From: a virus
IMG/VR virus record: IMGVR_UViG_3300045988_174170
Strand: one strand, 5' to 3'
Length of the DNA stretch: 64,000 nt
In this document: one piece after another, positions 19,383 through 63,725 of the stretch
Layout of the letters: every line of letters begins with the position of its first letter
Numbering within the stretch: the first letter of the stretch is position 1
Notes under the pieces: model-generated
What the model saw: only the letters and a program-made list of their open reading frames with translations
Database searches by the model: none
What the model was told of the DNA's origin: nothing
Program-made: the position numbers and the translations under genes

Positions 19383-19502
19383 ATGTTTTTCTTTATTGGC
19401 GCTATTGCCCTGAGTCTATACGCCTTATACTCCAAGATGAGCACTGAGGATTATCTCATGTGGTTCGCTCTACTTGTGTTCTTCTCATTCATCCTTGGGT
19501 AG
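19383..19502 (+). CDS. 39-aa hydrophobic peptide
   Basis: GGAGGG RBS 6 nt before the ATG. Sequence MFFFIGAIALSLYALYSKMSTEDYLMWFALLVFFSFILG. Confidence 0.35.
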   Translation: MFFFIGAIALSLYALYSKMSTEDYLMWFALLVFFSFILG

Positions 19503-19618
19503 GTATCCCACTTCGCACATATTCGACTTGCATACTATTTTAAATCTGTTTTAGACTATAGGCGTAAAGCAACCCGAAGTTTTAGAAAGTTTTCAAGCCT
19601 ACCGAAAGGTCGTTCATT

Positions 19619-20038
19619 ATGGCACAGGCAACCCTTAATCCCATCAAGTTCCTTGGTCGCCCTCTCCTTAAAACTGGCGAGTCAGGTCGAACATTCTTGG
19701 GTGAGAAAGTTGAGCTTGACCGCGATGCTGTTATCGAAGCACTAAAAGAGGTTAAGCTTTCAGCTATCCATGCTGTAGCTGAGGAGGAGCCCGGCATCTT
19801 TACTCTGGCATTGGACATATGGGAGGAGACGAAGTATATGCCCGGCTTTGCAAACCATACCCCGTTCGTTGCTTTCATTTGCAATAAAGACTCTCTGACA
19901 GGCGGCGCTAACTACCGTATTTACGCCATTGTGGAAGCCGATGGCGAAATTGCAGACGATTTCCAAACCATGCTTGAGTCTGGCATCCCAGCCAGCGCTA
20001 AGTTCAATGAGAAAGACGGTATTACCACCAGCTTCTAA
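19619..20038 (+). CDS. hypothetical protein, paralog family A
   Basis: 139 aa, GAAAGG RBS, paralog of 39040..39462 (LNFIGR.L...E.GR...GE..EL.R.AV..I). Confidence 0.75.
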   Translation: MAQATLNPIKFLGRPLLKTGESGRTFLGEKVELDRDAVIEALKEVKLSAIHAVAEEEPGIFTLALDIWEETKYMPGFANHTPFVAFICNKDSLTGGANYRIYAIVEADGEIADDFQTMLESGIPASAKFNEKDGITTSF

Positions 20039-20124
20039 CGCCCCCCTAGTGGGTGCCACCTAGCACAGGTGGTTACCTGTCACGTTTTATTAGACCTTGA
20101 TTTTGAAAGAAGGTTACACCCCTC

Positions 20125-20565
20125 ATGTCACCCCGCACTGTTGATTCTGTGGTGAAGGATTTCCTAAAAATTGAATGGGATGCCACTCTAGTAAGCATGA
20201 CCGCTTACCCGCCTGGTGACTATGTAGAGCAACCTGTACGGGATAACATGGCTAGGTCACGCAATAAGGCAGAGGCTCTCGCTAAGGTTGCCGAACAGTC
20301 CGCTAAGTATCTTGAGATGGTTGCTAATGGGTCGAGTGGTGACCTTGAGGATTTGCTGATTTTTGCGAGCGCGCAGGTTTCTGTACTTCGTGAACAAATG
20401 GCTAGTATTTCTGACTTGGGGTACTACTCTGAGCATGTTGCAAGCAAGGCGGCACGCAAGACACTATCTGAAGTTGCTGAAAGGTACGCGCCTTATAGGA
20501 AGAATTGGGCTGAGCGGCGTGAGAGTAAGGGGCTTATTTTCAAGCAAAACCCTCATGTGAGCTAA
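20125..20565 (+). CDS. hypothetical protein
   Basis: 146 aa. Its stop codon overlaps the TGTGA of the next cassette. Confidence 0.65.
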   Translation: MSPRTVDSVVKDFLKIEWDATLVSMTAYPPGDYVEQPVRDNMARSRNKAEALAKVAEQSAKYLEMVANGSSGDLEDLLIFASAQVSVLREQMASISDLGYYSEHVASKAARKTLSEVAERYAPYRKNWAERRESKGLIFKQNPHVS

Positions 20566-20610
20566 TTCACACGGTTTTAACTTGCATGGGGGTTATTGTT
20601 GTGCCATAAT
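20556..20610 (+). promoter_or_regulatory. cassette promoter C1
   Basis: TGTGAgctaatTCACA, TTGCAT, 17-nt spacer, TGcCATAAT. Confidence 0.6.
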
Positions 20611-20677
20611 AGAAATGTAGCAAGGGGATAACTCCTAAAGCTACTTCCACTATCTACCTTATGAAAGGGTTTCCATC

Positions 20678-20923
20678 ATGGCACGTTTTAAGATTGCGAA
20701 TCACGAGCTGGCTATCGAAGCTATCAAGGAAGGCATGAAGCTTTACCCCAGCCTGATTTGCCGTGACCACTACAGCAAGCAGGGTCGCTTTACCGTATGG
20801 TGCGGCGAAGAACGTGGCACTGTTGATGTGAAGGTACTTGCAGATTACGAAAACTTCCAGGATGTTTTCGATACCCCCAAGGTCAATTGGGAAGAGGGTT
20901 ACATCACCATTAACAAGAAGTAG
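20678..20923 (+). CDS. hypothetical protein, paralog family B
   Basis: 81 aa, paralog of 36885..37202 (..WCGE.R....V......NWEEGY.T.). Confidence 0.75.
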   Translation: MARFKIANHELAIEAIKEGMKLYPSLICRDHYSKQGRFTVWCGEERGTVDVKVLADYENFQDVFDTPKVNWEEGYITINKK

Positions 20924-21008
20924 TACCTAGTGCCCCGTATCTAACCTAGCCGGGTTGGATACGGGGTTTTCTGTATCCCTATTGGTTGATGACGCATCTC
21001 AAATATAA

Positions 21009-21063
21009 TGTGACCTAATTCACACGTTTTTAACTTGCGCACCCTTAATGGTTGTGTCATAAT
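21009..21063 (+). promoter_or_regulatory. cassette promoter C2 (leader deleted)
   Basis: Perfect palindrome TGTGAcctaatTCACA, TTGCGC, TGtCATAAT. The ATG lies only 5 nt after the -10. Confidence 0.55.
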
Positions 21064-21068
21064 AGTTC

Positions 21069-21377
21069 ATGACTAACTACCGCATCTTTAACCTGGTCGA
21101 GGGCGCTACCCCCACCCTGGAAAGCATGGCAAAGGCACTGGTTGCCGCTGTAGAAAACGAGTGGTTCCGTGATAACACTCTCTGCGTAGATGATGTAAAG
21201 GTCGAAAACGACGCGCTTCTCTTCGAGATTGACGGCTCGCACTTCAAGGCTGTAATTTCCGGTCGAGAAATCCACCTGTACGCCCGCAATGACGAAAGCG
21301 AGCTGGGTACCGACGGCGCAACCCAGTTCATTAAGACCATGAACCGCATCGGTTGCACTAAGGAATACATCTACTAA
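21069..21377 (+). CDS. hypothetical protein, probably translated from a leaderless mRNA
   Basis: ATG at 21069 lies 5 nt downstream of the -10 (CATAATagttcATG). No SD is possible. 102 aa. Confidence 0.6.
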   Translation: MTNYRIFNLVEGATPTLESMAKALVAAVENEWFRDNTLCVDDVKVENDALLFEIDGSHFKAVISGREIHLYARNDESELGTDGATQFIKTMNRIGCTKEYIY

Positions 21378-22323: not shown

Positions 22324-22423
22324 GGGCTTTACCTAGACCACGAACCGCTCGATAGATTGATAGAGCCCTAGAGACGCTAAAGCCTGTAGATAAAAGATAG
22401 TGGAACACGCCCCATAACCCCTA

Positions 22424-22478
22424 TGTGAGCTATTTCACGTGATTCTGGCTTGCATAGGGGTTAGGGGTGTGTCATAAT
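22424..22478 (+). promoter_or_regulatory. cassette promoter C3
   Basis: TGTGAgctattTCACg, TTGCAT, 17-nt spacer, TGtCATAAT. Confidence 0.6.
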
Positions 22479-22546
22479 AGAAGTACAGCAAGGAGGGAAG
22501 CCCCTAGCAATGAATCCACTATCTACCTACCGAAAGGTTACCAACC

Positions 22547-22891
22547 ATGAGCACCTACGCAATTCAGGACATTGTTGTCATTGGCACCGCAAGCGAACAC
22601 CTCTGGGACGCTCTCGAAACCTATAACGCCTTCAGTGAAACCGAAGCCCGCCGCAAGTTTAACGACATCTTCTCTCACGTTATCAAGGGTCTGAATATCA
22701 CCCCCGACACCGTTCTTTACGTAAACGAAGGTAACCGCCACGGTGATAAGGTGTGGCTCAACCTCTCCACTGATGAAGCCCTCACCAAGTACACCGAGCT
22801 CGATATTGTAATTAAGACCCCGACCAAGATTGAAGATGGTCAGGCTGTAACCCTGAGCATTGGCGACACCCCCCAGGTGACCATCAAGTAA
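22547..22891 (+). CDS. hypothetical protein
   Basis: 114 aa, cassette leader ending in GAAAGG. Confidence 0.7.
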   Translation: MSTYAIQDIVVIGTASEHLWDALETYNAFSETEARRKFNDIFSHVIKGLNITPDTVLYVNEGNRHGDKVWLNLSTDEALTKYTELDIVIKTPTKIEDGQAVTLSIGDTPQVTIK

Positions 22892-23117
22892 CCACCCCAT
22901 AGGGGAAACCCTATGACTAACACCCCGCCCTAGCGTAAGACATGCAGGGCGGGGTGTTACTGTACCCCTATAGACCGGGGCACCTGTATAATTAGGCGTG
23001 TTTGGCTTTGAGAGTTGCACGCCCCCGGTCAAGCCTGACATAATGGCTTACATAGGCGCTAGAAAACCCGCCTAGCCACACAATCCACCATTTCCCGCCT
23101 GAAAGGAAATAAATACC

Positions 23118-23915: not shown

Positions 23916-23989
23916 CAATAGGCGCTAACTGCATATATTCCCCTGTGATTCACCCATAATAAGGGGCAACCCTCTATAGCTAACTCCTA

Positions 23990-24044
23990 TGTGACCTATT
24001 TCACATGATTTAGATTTGCAAAGGGGTTAGGGGTGTGTCATAAT
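23990..24044 (+). promoter_or_regulatory. cassette promoter C4
   Basis: TGTGAcctattTCACA, TTGCAA, TGtCATAAT. Confidence 0.6.
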
Positions 24045-24104
24045 AGAAGTGTACCGAGGGGTTAGCCCCTCAAACAGTCCACTATCTACCGAAAGGTGCT
24101 AATC

Positions 24105-24464
24105 ATGGCTAACACCGTATTTAACTTCCAGAACGGTTACGAAGATATCAAGGTTTCCGCTTGTGACTTCCTGATGCCCGATGATGAAGTAGTGAACTTT
24201 ATCAACAATGAAGCAATTAGCGGTAAGTTTAGCTTCGAGTATGGCACCTGGGATTTTGGCGGCTTCGATGACGATGAGGAAGACATGGTGTTTATTAACT
24301 TCCAGGGCAACGACCCCCGTAAGACCCTCAAGGTAGAAGTAAGCAACACTGGCGAGTACTTCAGCTATTGGTGCGCAATTGCACGCAGTGAAGCTGTGAT
24401 TACTGACTTTGAATTGATGACCGACGAGATGGAACGTCACACTATCCTCCGCATCAAGGGCTAA
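24105..24464 (+). CDS. hypothetical protein
   Basis: Track 24096 (GTG). The ATG at 24105 is 8 nt after GAAAGG. Confidence 0.7.
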   Translation: MANTVFNFQNGYEDIKVSACDFLMPDDEVVNFINNEAISGKFSFEYGTWDFGGFDDDEEDMVFINFQGNDPRKTLKVEVSNTGEYFSYWCAIARSEAVITDFELMTDEMERHTILRIKG

Positions 24465-24527
24465 GCCCCTTATAATGCACCCCCGCTAGAGCTTTCCTAG
24501 CGGGGGTGCATCCAGCTCTAAATATAA

Positions 24528-24582
24528 TGTGACACAATTCATATAGTTTAGACTTGCACACCCGGCTAGGGTGTGGCATAAT
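24528..24582 (+). promoter_or_regulatory. cassette promoter C5
   Basis: TGTGAcacaatTCAtA, TTGCAC, TGgCATAAT. Confidence 0.55.
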
Positions 24583-24650
24583 AGTTATATAAGCGATAGA
24601 GAAAACCTCTAGAACTAGTTCGTTATCTACCTACCGAAAGGCTGGATACT

Positions 24651-24989
24651 ATGTCTACCGTTATTACCTACTCCGAGTTCCTTCTCACCTTCGACATTCC
24701 CGAAGAGCTTAGCGCAAAGGTGAAGGTATCCGATTTAACCCCCGAGGTTGTTTCCTTCGTTTTGTCCGGTGGTCGTGGTTCCGGTCGTGCCGTGCTTACC
24801 GTAAAGCTCGACGGTGAAGAGTACAAGCTGAACACCCGCCTGTACCCCGAGGAGTATGATGCCCTTGATTCTATTACCAATGATGGTATCAACTGTGATA
24901 CCAACAAGATTGTAGGCATTGAATGGGGTTCCTACTGTGCTTACGTTGAGTTTGGAGAGATTCGCCTCGCGGTCGGTAAGGCGCGCTAA
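24651..24989 (+). CDS. hypothetical protein
   Basis: 112 aa, cassette leader. Confidence 0.7.
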   Translation: MSTVITYSEFLLTFDIPEELSAKVKVSDLTPEVVSFVLSGGRGSGRAVLTVKLDGEEYKLNTRLYPEEYDALDSITNDGINCDTNKIVGIEWGSYCAYVEFGEIRLAVGKAR

Positions 24990-25051
24990 GCCCCTAGAAG
25001 CCCTAGTTGCTGAACCTAGTAGCTAGGGCTTGCTTCATGCCTTAAAACCCA

Positions 25052-25106
25052 TGTGCTCTATTTCACATGATTTTGACTTGCATGGGGGTTAGGGGTGTGG
25101 CATAAT
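25052..25106 (+). promoter_or_regulatory. cassette promoter C6
   Basis: TGTGCtctattTCACA, TTGACT, TGgCATAAT. Confidence 0.55.
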
Positions 25107-25172
25107 AGTTATATCAGGCGTTAGGGGAACCACCCTAGAGCCAATTCATTACCTACCGAAAGGCTAAATATA

Positions 25173-25466
25173 ATGGCTATCACTGTTTCTTACGAGCTCT
25201 CTCTCGACTACACTGCCCCCGAGGAACTTCTCGAAAAGATGGATGAGCTCAATGAAGACCCCGAGCCCGTTTCTTTGGATTCAGATGGTACGCTCACCGT
25301 TGAGCTTGACGGTGAAGAGTACGAACTGGATATTAACCATAGTCTTCTCGCTGAGGAAGTTGATGCTCTTGAGACAGTAGGCTTTAGTGCCGAGGCAATT
25401 GAAGAGATTATCTGGAGCGGGAATGATGCAATCGCACACTTCGCGGATATTAGCTACACTCCGTAA
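25173..25466 (+). CDS. hypothetical acidic protein
   Basis: 97 aa. 'LTVELDGEEYEL' resembles 'LTVKLDGEEYKL' of 24651..24989, so these may be divergent paralogs. Confidence 0.7.
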   Translation: MAITVSYELSLDYTAPEELLEKMDELNEDPEPVSLDSDGTLTVELDGEEYELDINHSLLAEEVDALETVGFSAEAIEEIIWSGNDAIAHFADISYTP

Positions 25467-26173: not shown

Positions 26174-26255
26174 CCTAATACCCCTAAATACACATAACCC
26201 CTTTACTGTAGTGTTTAGCTCATGTGCCCCGTGATTTTCAGCCTTCTACGGGGTA

Positions 26256-26310
26256 TGTGAGCTATTTCGCATGATTTGGACTTGCACACCCCTAAAAGGT
26301 GTGCCATAAT
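26256..26310 (+). promoter_or_regulatory. cassette promoter C7
   Basis: TGTGAgctattTCgCA, TTGCAC, TGcCATAAT. Confidence 0.55.
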
Positions 26311-26378
26311 AGTTACATAAGCAAGGGAAAACCCCTACAGCTTAGTCCACTATCTACCGACCGAAAGAGGTTAGAACC

Positions 26379-26876
26379 ATGATGCAGTCCACCACCAACA
26401 CCACCGTAGCGGCAATCGTTGAGCGTATCGGCGCTGAACCCCTGTACGGCATGAAGAAGCTTGAAATTGAAATCCGCGCAATGGTAGAGGTTGCCACTCA
26501 GGAACAGAAGGCACAGCTCAACAAGGAAATTGACGCATACCGCAACAACTTCCTGGAAGCGCTCAATGGCGACACCTTCAACGACGAAGCGGGTAACCGT
26601 AGCCTGGAATTTTCCGCCCTGATGAGCAAGCTGACCACCTTTGCCGACGGAATCGCTATCTATTGCGAGGTAGCAACCGAAGACGTAAAGGAAAGCTTCA
26701 ACGGCGACTTTGACGAAATGCCCTATATCCAGCACGGCATCACCGACAAGGAAGAAATGAAGAAGATTCGCCTCGAGGAAGCCCTGAACGCATTTACCAA
26801 CGTGTGCAGTGGATTCATGCGCAAGCACGAATGCTTCACCGCCGAGTGGGATAACCTGATGCTCAAGTTCAACTAG
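26379..26876 (+). CDS. hypothetical protein, paralog family I
   Basis: 165 aa, paralog of 56519..56986 (NGDF...PY.....E...K..R...A..F). Confidence 0.7.
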   Translation: MMQSTTNTTVAAIVERIGAEPLYGMKKLEIEIRAMVEVATQEQKAQLNKEIDAYRNNFLEALNGDTFNDEAGNRSLEFSALMSKLTTFADGIAIYCEVATEDVKESFNGDFDEMPYIQHGITDKEEMKKIRLEEALNAFTNVCSGFMRKHECFTAEWDNLMLKFN

Positions 26877-27379: not shown

Positions 27380-27471
27380 CCACACATACCTAAATCCGTA
27401 GACTCTAAGCCCTACCCCTGGCAAATCGCCAATAGGAGGTTTTCCCTATGCGCCCTACCCCCTAACCCTTA

Positions 27472-27526
27472 TGTGAGCTAATTCACATGGTTTCAAGTTG
27501 CATACGCCGTTAGAGCGTGTCATAAT
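27472..27526 (+). promoter_or_regulatory. cassette promoter C8
   Basis: Perfect TGTGAgctaatTCACA, TTGCAT, TGtCATAAT. Confidence 0.6.
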
Positions 27527-27595
27527 AGTTATATAAGCAAGGGGGAAACCCTCTAGCAATAAGTTCACCATCTATCTACCGAAAGGTTGAATACT

Positions 27596-27916
27596 ATGTC
27601 TCTTGCTACTTTTACTTTTGAAATGCCCCTCGAGGAACTTGATGAGGTTGCACCTCACCGCAACTACGAATACCCTGGTTGTTGTGAACTTATTGTTGAG
27701 GGTGTTGAATTTAATGACCATGACCACACCCTGACTCTCACCCTGGGCAATGACCACGGTAGCCGCGATGTAGACGCTCAGCCTAAAGATGTAGAAGACT
27801 TTGAAGCTCTTAGGGCACGCTACGAAGGCGAAGAAATCCCTGAGTACTACCTGTTTGAAAAGTCGGCTGTCTGGGACGTAGACCCCGAAGAAGGTTACGT
27901 AAAGTTCAACGTCTAA
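27596..27916 (+). CDS. hypothetical acidic protein
   Basis: Track 27587 (TTG). The ATG at 27596 follows GAAAGG. Confidence 0.7.
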   Translation: MSLATFTFEMPLEELDEVAPHRNYEYPGCCELIVEGVEFNDHDHTLTLTLGNDHGSRDVDAQPKDVEDFEALRARYEGEEIPEYYLFEKSAVWDVDPEEGYVKFNV

Positions 27917-29245: not shown

Positions 29246-29285
29246 AGCGCCCATATACCCCTAATAGGGATACCCATAACCCCTT

Positions 29286-29340
29286 TGTGACTCAATTCAC
29301 ACGTTTTTGAGTTGCAAGGGGGTTATAAGTGTGTCATAAT
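29286..29340 (+). promoter_or_regulatory. cassette promoter C9
   Basis: Perfect TGTGActcaatTCACA, TTGCAA, TGtCATAAT. Confidence 0.6.
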
Positions 29341-29413
29341 AGAAATGTAGCAAGGGGATAACCCCTAAAGCTACAGGTTTTGTTTATTGTTTCTCTACTG
29401 AGAGGTGTTTATC

Positions 29414-29785
29414 ATGTCGGTTACTTTCGAGGCTCTGATTGCTGATTACAAGTCCTTTAAGGACGACGCTAGTGAGTTCGGTTTCGCCGCCCTGAGCGCC
29501 CCCAACGCCCTGTCGGTAAACCACATCAGCCTTGCAGGTACTATGCTTCACCTTGCACGCCAGGCTAACGAAGCTATCGCAAACCTGGAGGCTGTCGGTG
29601 ACAAGGAAGGCGCAAAGGAATTTGCCGCCCTCATGCTCGAAGGTGCAAAGCGTAGCATGGCACTGTCCATTATTGACCTGCGCACCCGTACCGAGTTTGC
29701 CCCCGAAAAGCTGGAACAGCTGGAAGGTATCGCGGCAAAGTACCACGCATACCTCACCGACGAAGATTACGAGGGCGACTTCTAA
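29414..29785 (+). CDS. hypothetical protein
   Basis: Track 29405 (GTG). The ATG at 29414 is 9 nt after GAGAGG. Confidence 0.65.
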   Translation: MSVTFEALIADYKSFKDDASEFGFAALSAPNALSVNHISLAGTMLHLARQANEAIANLEAVGDKEGAKEFAALMLEGAKRSMALSIIDLRTRTEFAPEKLEQLEGIAAKYHAYLTDEDYEGDF

Positions 29786-31590: not shown

Positions 31591-31613
31591 GGGAATATAC
31601 CCAATAACCCCTA

Positions 31614-31668
31614 TGTGAGCTATTTCATATGATTCTGGCTTGCATAGGGGTTATTGGTGTGTCATAAT
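31614..31668 (+). promoter_or_regulatory. cassette promoter C10
   Basis: TGTGAgctattTCAtA, TTGCAT, TGtCATAAT. Confidence 0.6.
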
Positions 31669-31731
31669 GGTTATATACAGAAGGGGTAACCCTTGAAGTT
31701 AGTTCCATTATTTACCGAAAGGGGCTTTATT

Positions 31732-32040
31732 ATGATTCAGGAACTTCTGGCAAAGTCAGGGGAGCTTGTTCGGTGTACCGAAAAGCTGGATAAGCTTGCA
31801 GGTGTTGCCAATGGTTTTGCGGGTGCCATGCGTTTCATTGGTGACATGGAGCGCTCTAGTGAAGCCCGGAATCTCTATAAGGAAATTTGCGCTAAACGTA
31901 ATCATTGCAAGGCTCTTACTGCTTGGTACTATTCTTCCGATGTGCGTATGCGCAAAATTGAAGACCTGGATATTCGGGCTATCGAAGAAACTATAGAAGA
32001 GTATCGAAGCCAGCTAACCGCCCTTATCGAGGGAAAGTAG
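31732..32040 (+). CDS. hypothetical protein
   Basis: Track 31693 (TTG inside the leader). The ATG at 31732 follows GAAAGGGG. Confidence 0.65.
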   Translation: MIQELLAKSGELVRCTEKLDKLAGVANGFAGAMRFIGDMERSSEARNLYKEICAKRNHCKALTAWYYSSDVRMRKIEDLDIRAIEETIEEYRSQLTALIEGK

Positions 32041-32056
32041 CATACTCTCAATTCAG

Positions 32057-32111
32057 TGTGACTAGGTTCACATGAATCTGGCTTGCATACCCGGCTAGGG
32101 TGTGCCATAAT
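32057..32111 (+). promoter_or_regulatory. cassette promoter C11
   Basis: Perfect TGTGActaggtTCACA, TTGCAT, TGcCATAAT. Confidence 0.6.
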
Positions 32112-32172
32112 AGAAGTATAGCAAGGGAAAACCCTTAAAGCTACTTCCACTATCTACCGAAAGGCGCTAATC

Positions 32173-32538
32173 ATGGCTAACATTATGAACCCCTTCAACC
32201 GTAAGGTAATCCTCGAAGACGTGAACATTGGCGACTCACTCAAGTTTGTGTACGTCGGTGATAATGGTGAGCTTGTCAAGCACGACGACTATATTGCCGC
32301 CTACGATTCGTTTGCCGGTGCGCGCCTTGAAAACTGTGAAGGTAAGCTTATGGGTTACCTCAAGGTTGCCGAGTTCACTACCGAATGTGAAGAGTGCATG
32401 AGTGAAGATGACGAAGTTCACGCAATGGTCTGTGATGGTAACTACGTAATCGACGGTATGCGCTACATTGACGCTAAGGGGCGCGATTGGGGTCAGGCAT
32501 TTAACCTGCACGTATCCAGCAAGGTAACCTGTCTCTAA
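32173..32538 (+). CDS. hypothetical Cys-rich small protein
   Basis: 121 aa with CEGK...CEEC...C. Cassette leader. Confidence 0.7.
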   Translation: MANIMNPFNRKVILEDVNIGDSLKFVYVGDNGELVKHDDYIAAYDSFAGARLENCEGKLMGYLKVAEFTTECEECMSEDDEVHAMVCDGNYVIDGMRYIDAKGRDWGQAFNLHVSSKVTCL

Positions 32539-33826: not shown

Positions 33827-33921
33827 CTAGCCCCCCTATTCATGTACCCCCTGGAAGAGTCCCTAGAGCCTTCTAGGGGGTATAGGTGGGTAGCGCCCCT
33901 GGCTAGACCCTCAATATTAAA

Positions 33922-33976
33922 TGTGACCTATTTCACGCCATTTCAGTTTGCACACCTCTAAAAGGTGTGTCATAAT
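33922..33976 (+). promoter_or_regulatory. cassette promoter C12
   Basis: TGTGAcctattTCACg, TTGCAC, TGtCATAAT. Confidence 0.55.
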
Positions 33977-34056
33977 AGAAGTGTAGCGAGGAAGTGATAG
34001 ATAACTTCCATAAGGCACTAAGCCCGCTACGATAGATTCCCTGAAAGGAATACCTA

Positions 34057-47900: not shown

Positions 47901-47939
47901 TCACCACCAATAGACCCACTACCGTAAAGGAATGACACC

Positions 47940-48260: not shown

Positions 48261-48295
48261 ACAGTACCAATAGACCTGCTAGGAAAGGAAAGCTA

Positions 48296-48769: not shown

Positions 48770-48893
48770 CCCACCCCCGCAGGCGTGCCCCTAGAGCTAA
48801 CCAGAAAAGCACTAGGGGTACGCCACCAACACCCCAGGGGTGCCGCCACAGAACAACCCCCTACCCCCCTCTAAGAGTAAAGGAACCTAAACC

Positions 48894-49322: not shown

Positions 49323-49339
49323 AGCAGGAAACAAGTACA

Positions 49340-49714
49340 ATGAACACGATACCCCTCGACGCTTTCAGCTTCACCTCACGTGAAGTAAAGGAACTACTGC
49401 AAGTAGCATACAAACCCGTCAATGGCGGATACACCCTGAAAGACATCCTAGCCGCCATAGAAAAGCTAGAGGCTGGTTATGCCAGCACAGATAGCCACAC
49501 CTTCACAGAGGCACTATTCGGTAAGGTTAGCCGTGGAAAGGTTGCCCTCACAGACGACGCAAACCTACTAGGCACCTTTGACGCAAGCGTCATGCTCAAC
49601 CCTGGTAAGCTGGTAGGTGAAAAGGTGACACTAGGAAACAGTATCAAGGGGCGTATCGAGAATTTCCGAATCACCCAATACGGCGGACTACTCCTAGCTA
49701 TCCACGAAGAATAA
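49340..49714 (+). CDS. hypothetical protein, family E2
   Basis: 124 aa, paralog of 50584..50976 (YTL.DIL...E.L). Confidence 0.7.
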   Translation: MNTIPLDAFSFTSREVKELLQVAYKPVNGGYTLKDILAAIEKLEAGYASTDSHTFTEALFGKVSRGKVALTDDANLLGTFDASVMLNPGKLVGEKVTLGNSIKGRIENFRITQYGGLLLAIHEE

Positions 49715-49744
49715 AAACCACCCCTAACGAAAGACTAATTACTC

Positions 49745-50089
49745 ATGGCATTTTTTGGACTCGAAGCAATTACTAAGATTATCGACAGCATCAAGAATAG
49801 TATTCCCTCCTGGGTTAGTTCCCTTGGAAACAAGGACGAAAAGCCTACCACTGATTCTGAGGAACACGACGATAAATCGTGGGGTAGTGAACCGCATTAC
49901 GGTTATCACGATGATGATTACGATGATGACTACGAGGACTATAACCCCGACGGGGAATATTATCACGAAGAATACGACGCTGATGACGGTTCCTATAGTG
50001 TGACTGAAATTGGGCGGCGCGGCGCTTACGATGATGATGACAACTTTAGTTTCGTCATGTTCTCGGAATATGACGACGACGATTATTAG
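49745..50089 (+). CDS. highly acidic Asp/Tyr-rich protein
   Basis: 114 aa with DDDYDDDYEDY and DDDDNFSFVMFSEYDDDDY. GAAAGA RBS. Confidence 0.5.
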   Translation: MAFFGLEAITKIIDSIKNSIPSWVSSLGNKDEKPTTDSEEHDDKSWGSEPHYGYHDDDYDDDYEDYNPDGEYYHEEYDADDGSYSVTEIGRRGAYDDDDNFSFVMFSEYDDDDY

Positions 50090-50118
50090 ACCAAGGAAAA
50101 AGTAAGGAAATAGAAGCC

Positions 50119-50559
50119 GTGATTTCGGGAATCCCTATCCCTGTCAAGAAGGTAAAACTTGACAGTAAGAGCAACCGTGAGCTAAGGGGTTGCATTGGTG
50201 AAGATATTATCTATCATAATAACCAACCGTTCGCCACGCCGCGTAATATCATGAAGGGGCTCGCCCTGCTGGAAGAATCAAGCGCCTATTATTATCGTGG
50301 GGAATTTATCTTCGCCACCGCCGATATTTTTGTTCACGTAGGATTCGGCGCAGTAGACCCCATTAAGAAGACCGCCCCGGTCTTCATGCTTGGCGAAAAG
50401 ATTCTTGATGTCCCGCTGGAAGTCGTAAAGAATCCTGATAAACTAGCGTGTCAGCGGTTTAATTGGGGCGAGCCATGTAATCCAACTTTCAGGGTTTCAG
50501 ACGTTTACGTGTCGGATACTGGAAGCGTTTATGTTGCATACGATGCTAGTGGTTTCTAA
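50119..50559 (+). CDS. hypothetical protein, family E1 (second copy; GTG start)
   Basis: 146 aa, AAGGAAA RBS. Confidence 0.65.
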   Translation: MISGIPIPVKKVKLDSKSNRELRGCIGEDIIYHNNQPFATPRNIMKGLALLEESSAYYYRGEFIFATADIFVHVGFGAVDPIKKTAPVFMLGEKILDVPLEVVKNPDKLACQRFNWGEPCNPTFRVSDVYVSDTGSVYVAYDASGF

Positions 50560-50583
50560 AGCTAAAAGATAGGAAGATAAATC

Positions 50584-50976
50584 ATGGTGTATTTGGCATG
50601 GCGTGGAATTTCAGTAAGTAAGATTCAGGATAAGGAAGTCGCACGGGTACTTGTGGCAACATGTAAGCCCGTCGCTGAAGATAGGTACACCCTAGAGGAT
50701 ATTCTAGAAGTTCTTGAAAATATGGATAAAAAGAATCTTCAGACGTGGGCTGGGTATATGTTTAGCCGAGTACAGTTCGGGTCACCTGTTGATGGTCGAG
50801 TGTTCTTGTACCGCGACGCTTCGCTTATCGGGTCGATTAACGAACGGGGAATGATGAATCAGCGGAACCTCGTTGATGAGATTATTACTAGCAAGAACGG
50901 GGAGCGTGTAGGACAGATTGCGGCTGTTCGTGTAACCCGGCTAGGTGATGTATTCCTAGCTATTAAATATGACTAA
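50584..50976 (+). CDS. hypothetical protein, family E2 (second copy)
   Basis: 130 aa, GGAAGA RBS. Confidence 0.65.
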   Translation: MVYLAWRGISVSKIQDKEVARVLVATCKPVAEDRYTLEDILEVLENMDKKNLQTWAGYMFSRVQFGSPVDGRVFLYRDASLIGSINERGMMNQRNLVDEIITSKNGERVGQIAAVRVTRLGDVFLAIKYD

Positions 50977-51026
50977 CTAGAGTACACGCCTATATCTACC
51001 CCCTATAGGCAGTACTATAACCCCTA

Positions 51027-51081
51027 TGTGAGCTATTTCGCACTATTTTAGCTTGCATAGGGGTTGTTGGTGTGCCATAAT
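51027..51081 (+). promoter_or_regulatory. cassette promoter C19
   Basis: TGTGAgctattTCgCA, TTGCAT, TGcCATAAT. Confidence 0.6.
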
Positions 51082-51159
51082 GATTACACAAGCAAAGGGG
51101 GTATCTCACTAAGGGGTGCCACCTACACACCTTACCCACTTACTTGAAAGGCTGTAACC

Positions 51160-51525
51160 ATGTACCAAACTAATGAATTTGACACATACATCACCGTTCC
51201 CGAGTCTCTTACCCTTCAGGAAGTAAAGGACTTCCTTGCCGCGAATAGGGAGAAGCTTAATATTTCCCCCGCAAACGGTAAGTACAACATTGATAGTGGC
51301 TTGTGCATGTACACGTCCGGCAACGGGTCTATCGACGTTCACCGACTCAAGGGTGAACAGGGGCTTAATATTAGGTTCCATGACCGCTACTCATGGGGCG
51401 GCAAGGTACTCGAAATTGCAAGTTTGGCAATGATTGATGAAGAGTACAACGAGTACTACATTCCCTGTGAAGACTTTAGCGACCTAACCGACGCTCTTCT
51501 CGAAAAGTTTGAGATTACCCCCTAA
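51160..51525 (+). CDS. hypothetical protein
   Basis: 121 aa, cassette leader. Confidence 0.7.
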   Translation: MYQTNEFDTYITVPESLTLQEVKDFLAANREKLNISPANGKYNIDSGLCMYTSGNGSIDVHRLKGEQGLNIRFHDRYSWGGKVLEIASLAMIDEEYNEYYIPCEDFSDLTDALLEKFEITP

Positions 51526-51608
51526 CCCCTTCAACCCCCCTTGCCCCCTGAAGTTGATGAGAAGCTACAGGGGGTAAGGGCACCCAAGCCATAACACCCT
51601 AAACCTTA

Positions 51609-51663
51609 TGTGAGCTATTTCACCTGATTTTAACTTGCGTGGGGGTTAGAGGTGTGCCATAAT
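51609..51663 (+). promoter_or_regulatory. cassette promoter C20
   Basis: TGTGAgctattTCACc, TTGCGT, TGcCATAAT. Confidence 0.6.
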
Positions 51664-51745
51664 AGAAATGTAGCAAAGGGAAAGCCCCTAGCAATGAGTT
51701 CACCATCTAACCTTTGTCGCAAAGACCGAAAGGACAAGCCCACCA

Positions 51746-54745: not shown

Positions 54746-56314
54746 ATGTTCCACGACAGGAAGAATAACTACATAATGCAAGTAGCGAACCTACTAATTA
54801 TCGCCGTAGCCGCACTCATCATCATTGGTATCGGTGTGGCAATCTTCATGGCGGGTATCGTATCGGCAAGCCCCGGCGAGGTGAAGGTCATCTCAGGTCG
54901 CCGTGGTATCCGTGTACTGCAAGGTAAGACTGGTTGGCGTGTCCCGTTCATTGAGCGTGTAGACTCCATGACCGCAAGCATGGTATCTATCGACGTGAAG
55001 ACGAACGGTAGCACCCCCACCAACGACTTTATCAACGTGCAGGCTGAAGCTGAAGTGAAGGTACGTATCGGTCTAGACCGTAAGGAACTGTTCGAGGTTG
55101 CCGCTAGGAACTTCCTCGGTAGGACTGATATTGAAATCGCTGACTCGGTACGTGAAACCCTTGAAGGTCACCTACGTTCCATCATTGGTGAGATGGAGCT
55201 GAAGGCTATCGTCCAAGATAGGCAACAGCTCGCTAACAAGGTTCAGGAAAACGCAACGAACGACCTAGAGGAAATGGGTCTAGAAATCGTAGCGTTCAAC
55301 ATCCAGACCGTCCGTGACGATAAGGGTGTTATCGACAACCTTGGTGCTGACAATACCGAAAAGATTCGACAGGAAGCGGCAACCGCTAAGGCTATCGCAA
55401 CCCAGAAGATTGAGGAACAGCAGGCAAGCTCTGAAAAGCTCGCAAACGACGCACGTGTCGCCGCTGATAAGGAAATCGCTAAGAGGCAGAACGAGCTCGA
55501 AATCTCTAAGAGCCAGCTGAAGGCTGAAGCTGAGAAGGAACGAGCAATCGCTGAAGCCGCGTTCGAGACTGAGTTCGAGAACCAGCGAAGCCGAACCGAA
55601 GCCGCCCGCGCTAACGCTAACATTGTCCGACAGGAAAAGGAAGCACTAGTCAAGGCTAAGGAAGTTGAAGTCCGAAAGCAGACCCTAGTCGCTGAGGTTG
55701 AAGAAACCGCGAACACTGAACGTCGAGCACGTGAACAGCGCGCACAGGCTGAACTATTCGAGAGCATGAAGAAGTCCGAAGCTGAAGCGTACCGCCGCCA
55801 GCAGGAGGCAGAAGTGCTGAAGATGACCGCTGAAGCTGAGGCGTACCGCCGTCAGCAGGAAGCGGAAGCTCTCAAGATGACGGCAGAAGCGGAAGCAGAC
55901 GCAATCCGCCTACGTGGTGAAGCAGAAGCAGAAGCAGTGCGCCTCAAGCTTGAAGCAGAAGCAGACGGTCTAGACAAGAAGGCTGAAGCAATGCTCAAGA
56001 TGAAGGATGCCGCTGTTATTGAGATGCTTGTCAATGTCCTACCTGAAGTTGCCCGCGCTGTATCTGAGCCGCTGAATAATGTTGATAGCATCACCATGTA
56101 CGGTGAAGGTAATGCCGGGCAGATGGTTGGCGACATTATGACCAGCATGGATAAGGTAACCGCCGGACTAGGACTTGATGTTCGTGACCTGATTCAGGCA
56201 ACCGTAACCGGTCGAGCTATTGGTAGTGGAATCAATGCCGCTACCAAGAAGGATGCTGAGACGGTTTCGGCACCTCTGAACCTAGATGACCTAGAGAATG
56301 AGGACGCTATCTAG
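54746..56314 (+). CDS. flotillin (SPFH/band-7 domain protein, FloT/YuaG-like)
   Basis: An N-terminal TM is followed by an SPFH domain. 'LEGHLRSIIGEMELKAIVQDR ... LEEMGLEIVAFNIQTVRDDKGVIDNLG' closely matches Bacillus FloT 'LEGHLRSILGSMTVEEIYKNR...LAKMGLVIVSFTIKDVRDKNGYLESLG'. A long EA-repeat coiled coil (AEAEAYRRQQEAE, twice) precedes a C-terminal 'MLVNVLPEVARAVSEPLNNVDSITMYGEG' that matches FloT 'MIVKMLPEYAKQAAAPLSNIDKITVVDTG'. The alternative start at ATG 54776 is possible. Confidence 0.85.
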   Translation: MFHDRKNNYIMQVANLLIIAVAALIIIGIGVAIFMAGIVSASPGEVKVISGRRGIRVLQGKTGWRVPFIERVDSMTASMVSIDVKTNGSTPTNDFINVQAEAEVKVRIGLDRKELFEVAARNFLGRTDIEIADSVRETLEGHLRSIIGEMELKAIVQDRQQLANKVQENATNDLEEMGLEIVAFNIQTVRDDKGVIDNLGADNTEKIRQEAATAKAIATQKIEEQQASSEKLANDARVAADKEIAKRQNELEISKSQLKAEAEKERAIAEAAFETEFENQRSRTEAARANANIVRQEKEALVKAKEVEVRKQTLVAEVEETANTERRAREQRAQAELFESMKKSEAEAYRRQQEAEVLKMTAEAEAYRRQQEAEALKMTAEAEADAIRLRGEAEAEAVRLKLEAEADGLDKKAEAMLKMKDAAVIEMLVNVLPEVARAVSEPLNNVDSITMYGEGNAGQMVGDIMTSMDKVTAGLGLDVRDLIQATVTGRAIGSGINAATKKDAETVSAPLNLDDLENEDAI

Positions 56315-56392: not shown

Positions 56393-56430
56393 ACCTCTAT
56401 TGGGGCGTGATGTATATCATAGTATTTAAC

Positions 56431-56459
56431 TTGAAAGCACGTCTAAAGTGTGCCATAAT
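56431..56459 (+). promoter_or_regulatory. cassette promoter C21 (degenerate upstream half)
   Basis: TTGAAA, 17-nt spacer, TGcCATAAT. Confidence 0.45.
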
Positions 56460-56518
56460 AGACATATAGAAGTTCCTATAAGAAACCCAAGCCACTACAG
56501 GAAAGGAAAAGGTACACA

Positions 56519-60578: not shown

Positions 60579-60944
60579 ATGTACGTTGAATTTGTGAACA
60601 TGTTCACCGACCCGACCGGGTTCTTCAAGACAGCCCCAATGTGGGCATCCTTCATACTGCCCGGCGCTATCAACGCCCTACTTATTGTCATTCCCGCCGC
60701 CATAGCTGGTCTTATCGCCCACGATGAAGAGTTTGCCCTGTCTACCTCTTGGGTATTGAGTGTGTTGAATCTAGCTGTAGGTACTATATTTTGGGGTATT
60801 ATCGTTTCGCCTGCATTTGAGGCGCACGGCGTGAACCCTGGATTCCCCACTGTAATATCATTTGCACTAGGTTTCCTGGCAATGGCATCTGAAACCTGCC
60901 TGGCAACTCTACTATTCACAAAATTTGTAAGCAATAACTTCTAA
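60579..60944 (+). CDS. membrane protein, paralog family G
   Basis: 121 aa. Confidence 0.7.
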   Translation: MYVEFVNMFTDPTGFFKTAPMWASFILPGAINALLIVIPAAIAGLIAHDEEFALSTSWVLSVLNLAVGTIFWGIIVSPAFEAHGVNPGFPTVISFALGFLAMASETCLATLLFTKFVSNNF

Positions 60945-60961
60945 GGAAAGCAACATAAACT

Positions 60962-61951
60962 ATGGCAACCGATGTTGTGATACCCGCCCTGTTTCTAGAC
61001 CTCCCATGCAACCCATATTCACTAGAGTACTGGGAACTTACCGCTTTCCCCGATAGTTTCAAGGTAATATCTCTCATTGGTAGGGAGCAGTGGCTTATGG
61101 ACATCTACGTGCAGGGCGGTATCCCCGCTGTGGCAAAAATCCTTGACATTCCTGTTTCAACACTCACCTATCGGTGGTGGAAGTTCAAGAAACACCACTG
61201 GAAAGACCTAGCTGTAGAGCCCCCGTTTGGGATTAGGTGCGAATATGACTATGAGAAGCTATTGGCAGACGATTACTGTATCCATGAGACAGCTTACAGT
61301 AAAGGCTCTAAATGCATAACTTGGAAACTTGAAAGGTTCTGCATGGCTTCCGAGAAACGGCGAGAACTTAAAGAGCTTCTAGAAGAAGCAAGTAAAGGCA
61401 TTGAGTTGTCATATGAAGACCGGGCATGGATACTTTTCGCACCCCGCCTAGACCTTGGACTATTGTCGCTAGTAGACTACGCGGAACTGTGCAACCTTGA
61501 CAAGGAAGTGTCGGCACTCATTATCAAAAACCTTCTAGCTTACAAGAAGCCCCCACCGGAAAAGCTTGTTGATGGTCGCCCCGAATGGATGCGCCAATAC
61601 ACACTAAACACAGCATTTACCGACGATAACGACAAGGAACCCGCCTACAAGAAACAGCTACTAATGCGCCGGTACCGCAAGAGCCAATGCTACAAACTCG
61701 CATACCCACGGTACAAGAGTAGGAAGTTTCGGGTACTCTGGAACGAACCTCAAACACATAACGGGGTAACCTTCTATCCGGTTGAAGCACTATGGAACCT
61801 CATGGCTGAAAACAAAGGGCACCCAACTAGCATTAAAGCCGGTTCACGCGGTGGATATGTGACAGCTGAATATGTTGCAGAGAACGGCTGTGGCACATGG
61901 ATTCTAGAAGGCGAATACGCCACAGTGAAGAAATCCGCTAATGAAAGGTGA
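60962..61951 (+). CDS. family H protein (HTH-like N-domain); TGA stop in frame with next gene
   Basis: 329 aa. The C-terminal block 'KLAYPRYKSRKFRVLWNEPQTH.GVTFYPVEAL....GGYV' is shared with 59154. The TGA at 61949 overlaps the GAAAGGTGA RBS of 61958. Confidence 0.6.
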   Translation: MATDVVIPALFLDLPCNPYSLEYWELTAFPDSFKVISLIGREQWLMDIYVQGGIPAVAKILDIPVSTLTYRWWKFKKHHWKDLAVEPPFGIRCEYDYEKLLADDYCIHETAYSKGSKCITWKLERFCMASEKRRELKELLEEASKGIELSYEDRAWILFAPRLDLGLLSLVDYAELCNLDKEVSALIIKNLLAYKKPPPEKLVDGRPEWMRQYTLNTAFTDDNDKEPAYKKQLLMRRYRKSQCYKLAYPRYKSRKFRVLWNEPQTHNGVTFYPVEALWNLMAENKGHPTSIKAGSRGGYVTAEYVAENGCGTWILEGEYATVKKSANER

Positions 61952-61957
61952 TACGTT

Positions 61958-62359
61958 ATGGTTTTAGCCGCCGCTAATGCGGATACGAAAGACCCTATGG
62001 CGATTCTAGTAATACTGATATTTTTTGGTGCCTTGTTCTTGGTACTTGCCGCCTATACGGGCATTATATGGTTCGTTAAGCGGGGCAAGACGATTGATAA
62101 GCTAGGCATTATCTATAATGTCACCCCTACTATCGCTATTGGTGTTGCTGTTATCATTCTTGGTACTCAGCCTAGTTTCACTAAGGGGCTGTTTATGGGT
62201 GCTACATCTTTGGTTATTATGTTGTTTGCTCTGAGCTTCTTGTCGAGGTATTGTGAGCCGCCGGTGGCTGTTGGTAAGACGGCAACGCTAATGTTTGCTG
62301 GTTTAGGTGCATCTATTATTGTGTGTGCTATTCTGGCTTCTTTGACGGCAACCCTCTAA
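61958..62359 (+). CDS. membrane protein (4 TM)
   Basis: 133 aa, GAAAGGTGA RBS. Confidence 0.55.
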   Translation: MVLAAANADTKDPMAILVILIFFGALFLVLAAYTGIIWFVKRGKTIDKLGIIYNVTPTIAIGVAVIILGTQPSFTKGLFMGATSLVIMLFALSFLSRYCEPPVAVGKTATLMFAGLGASIIVCAILASLTATL

Positions 62360-62417
62360 GGTACATACCCCCTATCTGCAGGTGATTCACTTACGGTTAG
62401 GGGGTATGTCTATGCCG

Positions 62418-62474
62418 TGTGACCTATTCCCCATAATGTCTTGGTTTGCAAACAATACTAGAGTGTGTCATAAT
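62418..62474 (+). promoter_or_regulatory. cassette promoter C22
   Basis: TGTGAcctattcC.., TTGCAA, TGtCATAAT. Confidence 0.5.
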
Positions 62475-62537
62475 TGAAGTATCCACTTTCCTGGTAACCC
62501 TATAACGGGTACCAACACACCATGAAGGAGTCCAAAC

Positions 62538-63119
62538 ATGCTATTCAAGACTGAAGCCGAATATATCACTTTCCCCATCGAGAATAACCCCGATTTCATT
62601 AAGGAAGCCGAAGCGGGTAAGCCTATCAACATGCTCTACCGTAGCGACTTCCGCATCACCCGCCTCGGATACCTCAATAGTGAAGGCGCGTGCGACATTG
62701 GTGTTACCCTCGCATGTGGCGACGCTATCCACTATGTAGAAAAGAACTTCGACTTCCTCTATGCGCTCCCGTTCCACAGCACCGGCGTAAAGAACAACCC
62801 CGGCGAACTCTGGAACCACCCAGAGCGTAAAACCCCCGCCGTAGCGTTCAACTTCAAAGGAAAGTTCTTTGAAATTGATAACCCGCAGGTACCCATCCAC
62901 TTCAACGTACATGCCGTAGAAGAACGCGCTCTCAAAGAAGCCACCAAGATTACCGGAAAACCCTGTAGTAACCTCAATGCATACAAGGAACACGTAGAAG
63001 ATGGTGCATACCATGCACTATGCAACTACACCACCCAAGCCGAAGACGGGAACGGTATAGTCTACCACACTGGAAACCTGACCGTGGACTTCACCACCGG
63101 AAAGCTCACTATCTCATAA
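62538..63119 (+). CDS. hypothetical protein
   Basis: 193 aa, AAGGAG RBS. Confidence 0.6.
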   Translation: MLFKTEAEYITFPIENNPDFIKEAEAGKPINMLYRSDFRITRLGYLNSEGACDIGVTLACGDAIHYVEKNFDFLYALPFHSTGVKNNPGELWNHPERKTPAVAFNFKGKFFEIDNPQVPIHFNVHAVEERALKEATKITGKPCSNLNAYKEHVEDGAYHALCNYTTQAEDGNGIVYHTGNLTVDFTTGKLTIS

Positions 63120-63264
63120 CATGCAACAGGCATACCCCTGCGTAGGTCAAATAGCACCTAACCGGGGGTATTCTATGATATGATTAAGGCATACAGGTCA
63201 CCTGTAGCATAAGCATACAAAGACTGTATACCACAAGTCACTAGACAGAAAGGTTATAAGAACC

Positions 63265-63576
63265 TTGAAACGTAAGTCTGTAACCAAAAAGCATAAGGCA
63301 CGCGATTCACGCTACAACCACTGGCACTGGAAGTCCAACAAGAACGTCATCATCAACTCTAGCTGGGCAACAACCGGCGGTGGTGGTGCACGCAGTGTAG
63401 TTCACCCGTGGCGTGACGAGTCAGACCTTCACCTTCTAGCCAATGAGTACAACACTTACGGGCACCTAGAAGAGGAAAGCGTAGAAAACCTTGATGCCAA
63501 CCTACGCCGCCCGTCCGTGAACAGCTGTAGTGTCCATTGGTGTGATAGCTTATCATGCATGTACATCAAAAAGTGA
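63265..63576 (+). CDS. small basic protein (TTG start)
   Basis: 103 aa, AGAAAGG 12 nt upstream, TGA stop. Confidence 0.4.
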   Translation: MKRKSVTKKHKARDSRYNHWHWKSNKNVIINSSWATTGGGGARSVVHPWRDESDLHLLANEYNTYGHLEEESVENLDANLRRPSVNSCSVHWCDSLSCMYIKK

Positions 63577-63636
63577 CGCACATCACATGAAATCGACTTG
63601 CAAAGCACAAAATACTGTGCCATAATAGTTATATAA
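63573..63636 (+). promoter_or_regulatory. cassette promoter C23 (drives a leader with no ORF, upstream of the tRNA promoter)
   Basis: GTGACgcacaTCACA, TTGCAA, 17-nt spacer, TGcCATAAT, then leader hairpin CGGGG-ttatcgagag-CCCCG. Confidence 0.5.
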
Positions 63637-63725
63637 GCCGCCGGGGTTATCGAGAGCCCCGACAGCTTACACAATGAGGAATACTGACAAACGACTGAAC
63701 GTGATACAAAACACAGAAAGTCGAG

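Follow-up and report, generated by a model that had tools for sequence, protein, structure and literature searches.

A repeated promoter-leader cassette in a gene array of an uncultivated phage family from the human mouth

The IMG/VR virus record IMGVR_UViG_3300045988_174170 is represented by a DNA stretch of 64,000 nucleotides (the window), of which a region of 44 kb carries an array of small genes interspersed with copies of one conserved promoter-leader unit, termed the cassette. A total of 68 genes of at least 60 amino acids are predicted on the + strand of this region; 62 of the 68 proteins gave no match in Pfam, and 63 gave none in PHROG. A search with an nhmmer profile located 24 cassettes between positions 20,546 and 63,650, all on the + strand, plus a 25th, promoter-only copy in front of a tRNA gene; the profile detected no cassette in the stretch from 1 to 19.5 kb. 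The proposal of the initial annotation that one conserved cassette is present in at least 23 copies was borne out by this count.

The cassette is about 140 bp long and comprises four parts: a dyad, a sigma-70-like promoter, a leader with a hairpin and a G-poor tract, and the motif GAAAGG with the start codon of the gene that follows. The promoter part (TTGCA-N17-TGnCATAAT, spacing about 17 bp) has a fixed geometry in 110 distinct promoter segments, which were pooled from the window and related contigs. The elements 3' of the dyad follow in the order -35 box, spacer, -10 box, initial transcribed block (AGTTATATAAGC or AGAAGTGTAGCA), hairpin, G-poor tract (CCACTATCTACCTACC) and GAAAGG, and the conserved block closes with GAAAGG-N6-9-ATG. 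The pattern TTGNNN-N14-16-TGN[CT]ATAAT matched the + strand of the window 25 times and the - strand not once, the dyad (TGTGA-N6-TCACA, up to one mismatch) was observed 21 times versus 1.8 expected, and the 55-nt composite of dyad, -35 and extended -10 was observed 15 times versus 0 expected. For example, the reference copy (39,991-40,130, +; before g40128) consists of a first hairpin arm (39,990-40,003), the dyad TGTGACTCAATTCACA (40,004-40,019), the -35 box TTGCAA (40,030-40,035), the spacer (40,036-40,052), whose first 13 nt together with the last -35 base form the second hairpin arm, the -10 box CATAAT (40,053-40,058), a predicted start site at about 40,065, the leader hairpin (40,069-40,091), the G-poor tract (40,092-40,112), GAAAGG (40,113-40,118) and the ATG at 40,128; its upstream stem is 22 bp long, with a folding free energy (ΔG) of -39.5 kcal/mol.

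In the alignment, similarity starts about 12 nt 5' of TGTGA and ends at the ATG, with none beyond; the first 135 nt of the downstream genes show 29% identity, i.e. the random level. The consensus that had been read from the sequence, including AGCTACTTCCACTATCTACC...GAAAGG, proved correct, and the repeat is more than a pair of -35 and -10 hexamers, as the dyad upstream of them, the spacer between them and the structured leader are conserved too. The copies are not the identical 130-bp blocks of the initial annotation: copies agree at about 60% of positions when aligned globally and at 70-87% when aligned locally, and the longest common exact run has a median of 14 nt. The spacer invariably ends in GTGTG at its 3' end, and the -10 box is always CATAAT. 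The 10 bp 5' of the -35 box are T-rich (tgaTTTtgac), and it is the specific dyad that dominates the upstream region instead of generic AT-richness. A mobile element of the miniature inverted-repeat type was rejected as an explanation, since all copies have a single orientation and a fixed distance to the -10 box and the ATG.

The full dyad reads ATGTGA-N6-TCACAT, which corresponds to the core of the E. coli CRP consensus. Its half-sites are conserved across the 110 distinct copies and its central 6 bp are variable; within the window, it is essentially limited to cassettes. Relative to a start site predicted 7 nt past the -10 box, the dyad is centred at -53.5 and spans -61 to -44. Most simply, it represents a putative site for a dimeric regulator that would place the set under common control as a regulon.

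In about half of the cassette copies, the hairpin that follows the preceding gene is interleaved with the promoter. In these copies (type A; 48 of the 110 segments, as classified by the spacer sequence alone) the 14 nt before the dyad (e.g. CCCCTAACCCCTT) are reverse-complementary to the last base of the -35 box and the 13 spacer nt that follow it (AAGGGGTTAGGGG), and the stem is extended by pairing of TGTGA with TTGCA, including G-U pairs, to 20-22 bp (ΔG -27 to -39.5 kcal/mol). The stem begins 8-38 nt past the upstream stop codon and can therefore be regarded as a gene-closing stem-loop interleaved with the promoter of the next gene. Among the 48 type-A copies, 81.8% of the cells in the stem are paired versus 78.0 ± 0.6% in shuffled sets, and 54 double-sided changes compare with 30.3 in the shuffles, neither value being reached in any of 500 shuffles; slid registers pair only 27-52%. 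An example of the covariation is the base 5' of TGTGA with the sixth -35 base (A..T versus T..A). Type-B copies have an AT-rich upstream segment, a palindrome CACCC-N5-GGGTG in the spacer between -35 and -10, and a separate hairpin farther upstream; they retain the dyad, which there lies outside the long promoter-overlapping hairpin.

Of 94 distinct leaders, 84 were predicted to have a hairpin that starts 12-16 nt past CATAAT. When a MAFFT alignment of the leaders was folded with RNAalifold, only three pairs were recovered because the stems differ in length and sequence, and the leaders were then folded one by one (mean ΔG -10.5 versus -5.6 kcal/mol in shuffles). The hairpins comprise 34 different 5' arms and stem sequences; the commonest loops are A-rich (AAAAC, GAAA, ATAA), some leaders have loops of 8-10 nt, and the loop sequence is not uniform. 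A search of the window against Rfam yielded only tRNA above the gathering score, and the leader matched no curated RNA family. One copy (21,001-21,067, +; detail at 21,035-21,071) is promoter-only: it was located by the profile, its leader is lost, and the ATG of g21069 stands 5 nt past CATAAT, whereas the orthologous copies in the related loci L147, L174, L175 and L176 keep a leader of about 64 nt. The mRNA of g21069 is predicted to be leaderless, which fits a start site 6-7 nt past CATAAT. A pairing of the leader motif CCACTATCTACC with an upstream inverted copy was considered and dismissed as a general feature, as it is seen only near 22,380-22,400. At that place (22,375-22,400, upstream of the copy at 22,411) a partial inverted CCACTATCTACC (..TAGATAAAAGATAGTGG..) is present, which is kept in L094 and L147 and does not occur at other copies.

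The region had initially been described as about 65 single-gene transcription units, each with its own promoter and intrinsic terminator. This picture did not hold, as the 68 genes have only about 25 promoters (about a third of the genes) and 16 of the 67 junctions are shorter than 45 nt and operon-like, e.g. within 40,686-42,640, 47,532-50,976 and 60,579-62,359. Of the 51 long junctions, 42 contain a hairpin with a ΔG of -20 kcal/mol or lower within 100 nt of the stop codon, and only three of these 42 hairpins are followed by a T-rich tail (at least 5 T in the next 9 nt); the predicted intergenic hairpins are not canonical intrinsic terminators. Junctions without a cassette contain a hairpin, a C/A-rich spacer and GAAAGG, and no recognisable promoter. 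Most of the genes behind the cassettes have no relation to each other, and 10 small paralog families (21-59% amino-acid identity) were identified, which agrees with the earlier description of the gene content. A tandem duplication (g47532/g47940, 47,532-48,260; 59% amino-acid identity) and a repeated two-gene unit (g48894-g49340 at 48,894-49,714 and g50119-g50584 at 50,119-50,976; about 34% identity) lie mostly in operon-like stretches that lack cassettes. At 54,746-56,314, the array's largest gene encodes an SPFH/flotillin-family protein (Band_7, E = 6e-21), one of the six proteins with a Pfam match.

For comparison between strains, 15 related loci were aligned with the window, which yielded 40 unique ends of homology blocks. 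Sixteen of these ends lie in cassettes, which make up 8.3% of the region (about five-fold enrichment; binomial p = 5e-8). Of the remainder, 11 lie in intergenic DNA outside cassettes, which accounts for 16% of the region, and 13 lie within genes, which account for 76%. Furthermore, two modules that are present in the window are absent from a relative, each absence leaving one chimeric cassette. L053 lacks the two-gene module at 44,139-45,410 (+; g44136, g44967) and has instead a single cassette with the 5' part of the copy at 43,998-44,138 (before g44136) and the 3' part of the copy at 45,408-45,551 (before g45549), the switch being located inside the shared TGTGAGCTATTTCA; both partner copies were located by the profile. 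Similarly, the IMG/VR relative L147 lacks the one-gene module at 24,047-24,527 (+; g24105), and its single cassette switches from the copy at 23,980-24,107 (located by the profile; before g24105) to the type-B copy at 24,515-24,653 (before g24651; CACCC..GGGTG palindrome in the spacer) inside GTGTGnCATAATAG. In L175, an extra cassette and two genes are inserted at the copy at 25,040-25,175 (before g25173), with boundaries that differ from those of the L053 and L147 events. Synteny with L175 and L176 breaks inside the copy at 27,458-27,598 (before g27596), with different gene sets beyond, and a module of thymidylate synthase, a 170-aa protein and DHFR replaces the genes after this copy (L174, 13,926-15,489; L176, 7,887-9,997); the synteny of L174 with the window stops earlier than copy 27,458. 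Gene content is strongly variable among the strains. Since the crossovers are located at differing points, each within a run of identity, the chimeric junctions indicate homologous, not site-specific, recombination. The idea that the cassettes act as recombination linkers, which the initial annotation had put forward, is supported by the block ends and by both modules.

Exact matches to proteins of the window lie on contigs that are 267-313 kb long and come from metagenomes of the human mouth (PRJEB6997 and others). A first, loose collection pattern returned mostly single chance matches, from which the true relatives were sorted afterwards with the nhmmer profile; in the metagenome and IMG/VR scans sorted in this way, the cassettes were confined to related phage contigs of 200-313 kb. 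The composite pattern was found in IMG/VR on one contig of the family and in two chance matches, the loci L190 and L191, which were rejected as relatives (38-41% GC), and it was absent from a scan of GTDB with one genome per species (185,579 genomes). The region had zero nucleotide matches among 50,697 GenBank phage records (megablast, blastn), and no cultured relative was detected there. In these scans, the cassette is restricted to one uncultivated phage family (about 290-313 kb) of the human mouth, for which about 30 contigs of 288-313 kb were indicated as near-complete genomes. In distant relatives, the cassettes are still recognisable although the flanking genes have no DNA similarity to the window. 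No usable signal of host or lineage was obtained from Pfam and PHROG scans of the proteins of the window and its relatives, from the GTDB cassette scan or from a search with a PilT-like ATPase (see below), and a search for the Neisseria uptake sequence was negative. There are no structural or replication core genes within the window or the fetched related loci. The arrays of relatives contain RNA ligase, polynucleotide kinase, thymidylate synthase and DHFR genes, which are not diagnostic of T4-type phages; arrays of more distant relatives carry, besides RNA ligase and polynucleotide kinase, Ro/TROVE, PspA and Bax-inhibitor genes. Genes for TnpB/IS605 OrfB-like proteins (Cas12f1-like TNB domain) are inserted in the arrays of L185 (3,866-5,437, -), L099, L110 and L032; in L185, the only case for which the strand was read, the gene is on the strand opposite to the array.

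The closest known counterpart is the promoter-early stem-loop (PeSL) of the T4-type phages RB49/phi1, T4/PST and KVP40/nt-1 (Arbiol et al. 2010, PMC2839356; Comeau et al. 2014, PMC4122927). It has about 100 bp of conserved sequence, in which a sigma-70-like promoter is preceded by AT-rich DNA, a GGGG...CCCC stem-loop may lie 5' of the promoter boxes, between them or over them, and the 3' end is formed by a Shine-Dalgarno sequence with the ATG. PeSLs are clustered in hyperplastic regions, and genes flanked by two PeSLs in one phage correspond to one chimeric PeSL in a relative (PMC2839356, PMC4122927). The PeSL type is also defined by demonstrated promoter and terminator activity and by mini-circles, circular molecules of a gene plus one cassette that the PeSL model predicts. 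The cassette shares with PeSL the sigma-70-like promoter, with 17 bp between its boxes, a stem-loop of G-run and C-run next to or over the promoter, the 3' Shine-Dalgarno sequence and start codon, the dense clustering in hyperplastic regions of unknown genes, and the substitution, in a relative, of one chimeric cassette for genes that lie between two cassettes; the PeSL subclasses with the stem-loop between -35 and -10 and with the stem-loop overlapping -35 are both matched here. All PeSL features that were compared at the sequence level are found, with the generic AT-rich upstream region as the one less clear case. Unlike PeSL, the cassette is longer (about 140 bp), has a CRP-like dyad (-61 to -44) in place of the AT-rich region, an invariant GTGTG at the end of the spacer, CATAAT as the only -10 box and a conserved structured leader of about 60 nt, and in about half of the copies it is overlapped by a 20-22-bp hairpin that encloses a dyad half-site, the -35 box and the spacer. 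Its carrier is an uncultivated oral phage of about 290-313 kb. Gene turnover bounded by such cassettes has already been described for PeSL and is less unprecedented than the initial annotation assumed; new are the size and elaboration of the unit (dyad operator, promoter-interleaved hairpin, structured leader), its presence in a family of oral phages of about 290 kb, and the large set of variants.

We consider it probable, with good confidence, that the cassettes are composite regulatory units of the PeSL type that also serve as homology patches for the exchange of gene modules. In such a unit, the upstream stem-loop would terminate, attenuate or mark the 3' end of the preceding message, or would act in its processing or stabilisation, and host polymerase would be recruited by a sigma-70-type promoter that has an extended -10. 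The leader would fold at its 5' end and then lead, through an unstructured G-poor stretch, to GAAAGG, a ribosome-binding site that is uniform among the copies. Any small gene behind such a unit could thereby gain transcription by the host polymerase, efficient initiation of translation and insulation from its neighbours. Since the cassettes are alike while the genes between them differ, they would serve as homology patches, between which the recombination machinery of the phage could exchange, delete, insert and duplicate modules, giving rise to the hyperplastic region. An early or host-takeover regulon is plausible in view of the sigma-70-like promoter and of the high share of proteins without a Pfam or PHROG match, and the proposed arrangement would suit an early accessory or host-takeover region.

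Several points weigh against this reading. The -35 box matches TTGACA at only three of six positions and the -10 box always starts with C; start site, promoter strength and timing are predictions, and the participation of the host RNA polymerase is what we infer. The intergenic hairpins, having no U-tracts, may not terminate transcription. The excess in covariation is modest, and the kinship of the sequences can inflate it. With 24 of the 40 breakpoints outside cassettes, these are preferred, not exclusive, sites of recombination, and the ends of BLAST alignments can drift toward repeats.

Of the alternatives, the one that deserves most attention is that the promoters are more than simple early promoters served by the host alone and depend on, or are shut off by, a dimeric regulator at the dyad, which we regard as possible, though the less probable view. 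If this were a host protein of the CRP/GlxR family, early expression of the phage would be coupled to the physiology of the host, or the host factor would be titrated; a phage-encoded activator or repressor would define a delayed-early or middle class. A separate cluster of TATAAT promoters of another build, at 14.3-14.6 kb, could represent the genuine immediate-early class, which would favour a regulator at the dyad. The conservation of the half-sites around a variable centre, the retention of the dyad outside the long hairpin in type-B copies, its near-confinement to cassettes and its likeness to the CRP core all speak for such a protein. Classical activating positions of CRP are -41.5, or -61.5 and farther upstream by integral helical turns; the dyad matches a CRP-dependent promoter in sequence, but its predicted centre at -53.5 fits neither of these positions (the start site being a prediction), and Pfam and PHROG revealed neither a CRP-family domain nor any other DNA-binding domain in the 68 proteins of the region. 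For the leader, a nut/boxB-like role has been considered, in which a factor on the hairpin with its A-rich loop would allow read-through of the U-less hairpins or would control translation or decay across the regulon. The hairpin is at a fixed distance from the promoter, its stem varies while the commonest loops are A-rich, and about 25 promoters have to serve 68 genes separated by strong hairpins; the loops are not uniform, however, and some have 8-10 nt, no boxA-like element or N-like protein was identified, and the data are accounted for just as well by a hairpin that simply stabilises or insulates. This role is regarded as unlikely. Rather doubtful, too, is a combination in which dyad and leader hairpin are the two handles of a dedicated circuit, with a CRP-family or phage-encoded dimer that switches, or is titrated by, at least 25 promoters per 44 kb and an antitermination or RNA-binding factor acting on the hairpin; an exchangeable gene library would then be under one-step control by the same unit that is its homology patch.

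Two further explanations appear highly improbable. Integron attC arrays are long arrays of small genes in the same orientation with structured repeats of about 130 bp, and a site-specific gene-cassette system of this kind, with a dedicated recombinase and a secondary promoter, is superficially suggested by the long same-strand array of small unknown genes, by the repeats of about 130 bp with inverted repeats, and by the TnpB/IS605-like genes in the arrays of related strains. Unlike an attC site, the cassette stands upstream of its gene, ends exactly at the ATG and carries a promoter; it has one orientation and a fixed promoter geometry in all copies, and Pfam and PHROG detected no integrase in the region's 68 proteins. 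The two mapped crossovers lie at different positions of the cassette, each in the longest shared identical run, and the L175 event has yet other boundaries; with crossover points that vary, the integron-like system was rejected. The cassettes might also be the residue of a tandem duplication of gene-plus-promoter units, their similarity reflecting recent common descent and neither selection nor a role in recombination, for which some paralogs and tandem duplications (g47532/g47940; 48,894-49,714 versus 50,119-50,976) could be cited. This has very little to recommend it against genes that are mostly unrelated, a similarity that ends at the ATG, duplicates that are mostly located in operon-like stretches without cassettes, cassettes that remain recognisable in distant relatives whose flanking genes lack DNA similarity to the window, and hairpin stems that covary. 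The reading as PeSL-type regulatory units with a second role as homology patches is retained.

Other systems resemble the cassette in parts. Class I and II CRP-dependent promoters of enterobacteria and the GlxR/Crp sites of Actinobacteria have a core consensus like the dyad, upstream of a sigma-70-type promoter; the cassette differs from them by the non-canonical predicted centre at -53.5 and by its approximately 25 copies in one phage region. A putative actinobacterial host would fit the U-less hairpins, GAAAGG, the TGnGnCATAATgG extended -10, the leaderless variant and the CRP/GlxR-type box. In the host-takeover module of Bacillus phage SPO1, small early genes are clustered under recurrent strong promoters of the host type and have strong ribosome-binding sites, and the gene 10 leader of phage T7 contains a 5' hairpin, an unstructured enhancer and a Shine-Dalgarno sequence; the cassette resembles the former in its repeated promoters over small genes and the latter in the order of its leader. 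To our knowledge, neither SPO1 nor T7 has a unit of about 140 bp that is repeated at such fidelity, and neither is known to mediate the exchange of modules. In cluster K mycobacteriophages, the start-associated sequence (SAS) and extended SAS (ESAS) place a short conserved motif just upstream of many start codons, sometimes with inverted repeats, the SAS being 13 bp long and without a promoter; the conserved motif before many start codons is similar here, and is part of a promoter-containing unit.

The cassette extends the PeSL idea, i.e. a regulatory unit that doubles as a recombination linker, from cultured T4-type coliphages and vibriophages to an abundant oral jumbo phage. At least 110 natural variants from metagenomes are available as a comparative data set for the function of promoter, operator and leader, and the chimeric junctions are direct genomic evidence on the turnover of accessory gene libraries in large phages. 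The conserved dyad is a handle toward the regulator, and possibly the host, of this phage group, and the cassette is predicted to be a compact natural expression unit.

The remaining copies are all located on the + strand. The profile detected cassettes before g20678 (20,546-20,680; type A, 121 bits), g22547 (22,411-22,549; type A, 127 bits), g26379 (26,244-26,381), g29414 (29,273-29,416; type A), g32173 (32,045-32,175; type B), g36885 (36,759-36,887), g39040 (38,909-39,042), g51160 (51,014-51,162; type A) and g51746 (51,596-51,745), and a cassette with a variant leader before g34057 (33,910-34,056); the type-A copy before g31732 (31,600-31,734) has a hairpin of -36 kcal/mol that begins 8 nt past the upstream stop codon. 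A divergent cassette precedes g47532 (47,418-47,533; nhmmer, 44 bits), and a divergent promoter-leader without dyad precedes g23118 (23,009-23,114), where it was located with the regular expression and gave a weak profile score (18 bits). Cassette-type promoters with a different leader were detected by the profile before g56519 (56,407-56,518) and g62538 (62,414-62,537), as was a further cassette-type promoter at 63,573-63,650. The same promoter type, found with the regular expression at 63,726-63,754, has no protein-gene leader and directly precedes tRNA-Glu (63,794-63,867), after which a gene-poor gap of about 2.5 kb follows just past the end of the window (L192, 11,040-13,500). At the other end of the array, a degenerate unit before g19619 (19,510-19,618) consists of TTGCAT and a leader ending in CTACCGAAAGG; the segment 19,510-20,097 is missing from strains L001, L174 and L175.

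The part of the window to the left of the array (1-18,000) shows an extreme strand asymmetry, which switches at about 14,260. The + strand of the first 14.2 kb is nearly without T and G (AT skew to +0.70, GC skew to -0.50), and 14.3-18 kb is its mirror image; transcription appears divergent from about 14,260, with a sense strand that is G+T-rich on both sides. Open reading frames in the asymmetric region encode Gly/Val/Ser/Trp-rich proteins, e.g. at 11,905-13,443 (-) and 5,689-7,332 (-). A PilT/GspE-like secretion or twitching ATPase of 518 aa is encoded at 3,732-5,288 (+) on the A/C-rich strand, opposite to its neighbours; no close relative of it was found in GTDB genomes. The segment 13,450-14,260 is non-coding and of low complexity ('ACACAGACA'-type). 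Three tandem T-rich promoter-like boxes of another type (..GGTATAATG.., ..TCTATAATC.., ..GGTATAATG..) head the + strand gene array at 14,300-14,570 and face right; they may represent a cluster of immediate-early promoters.

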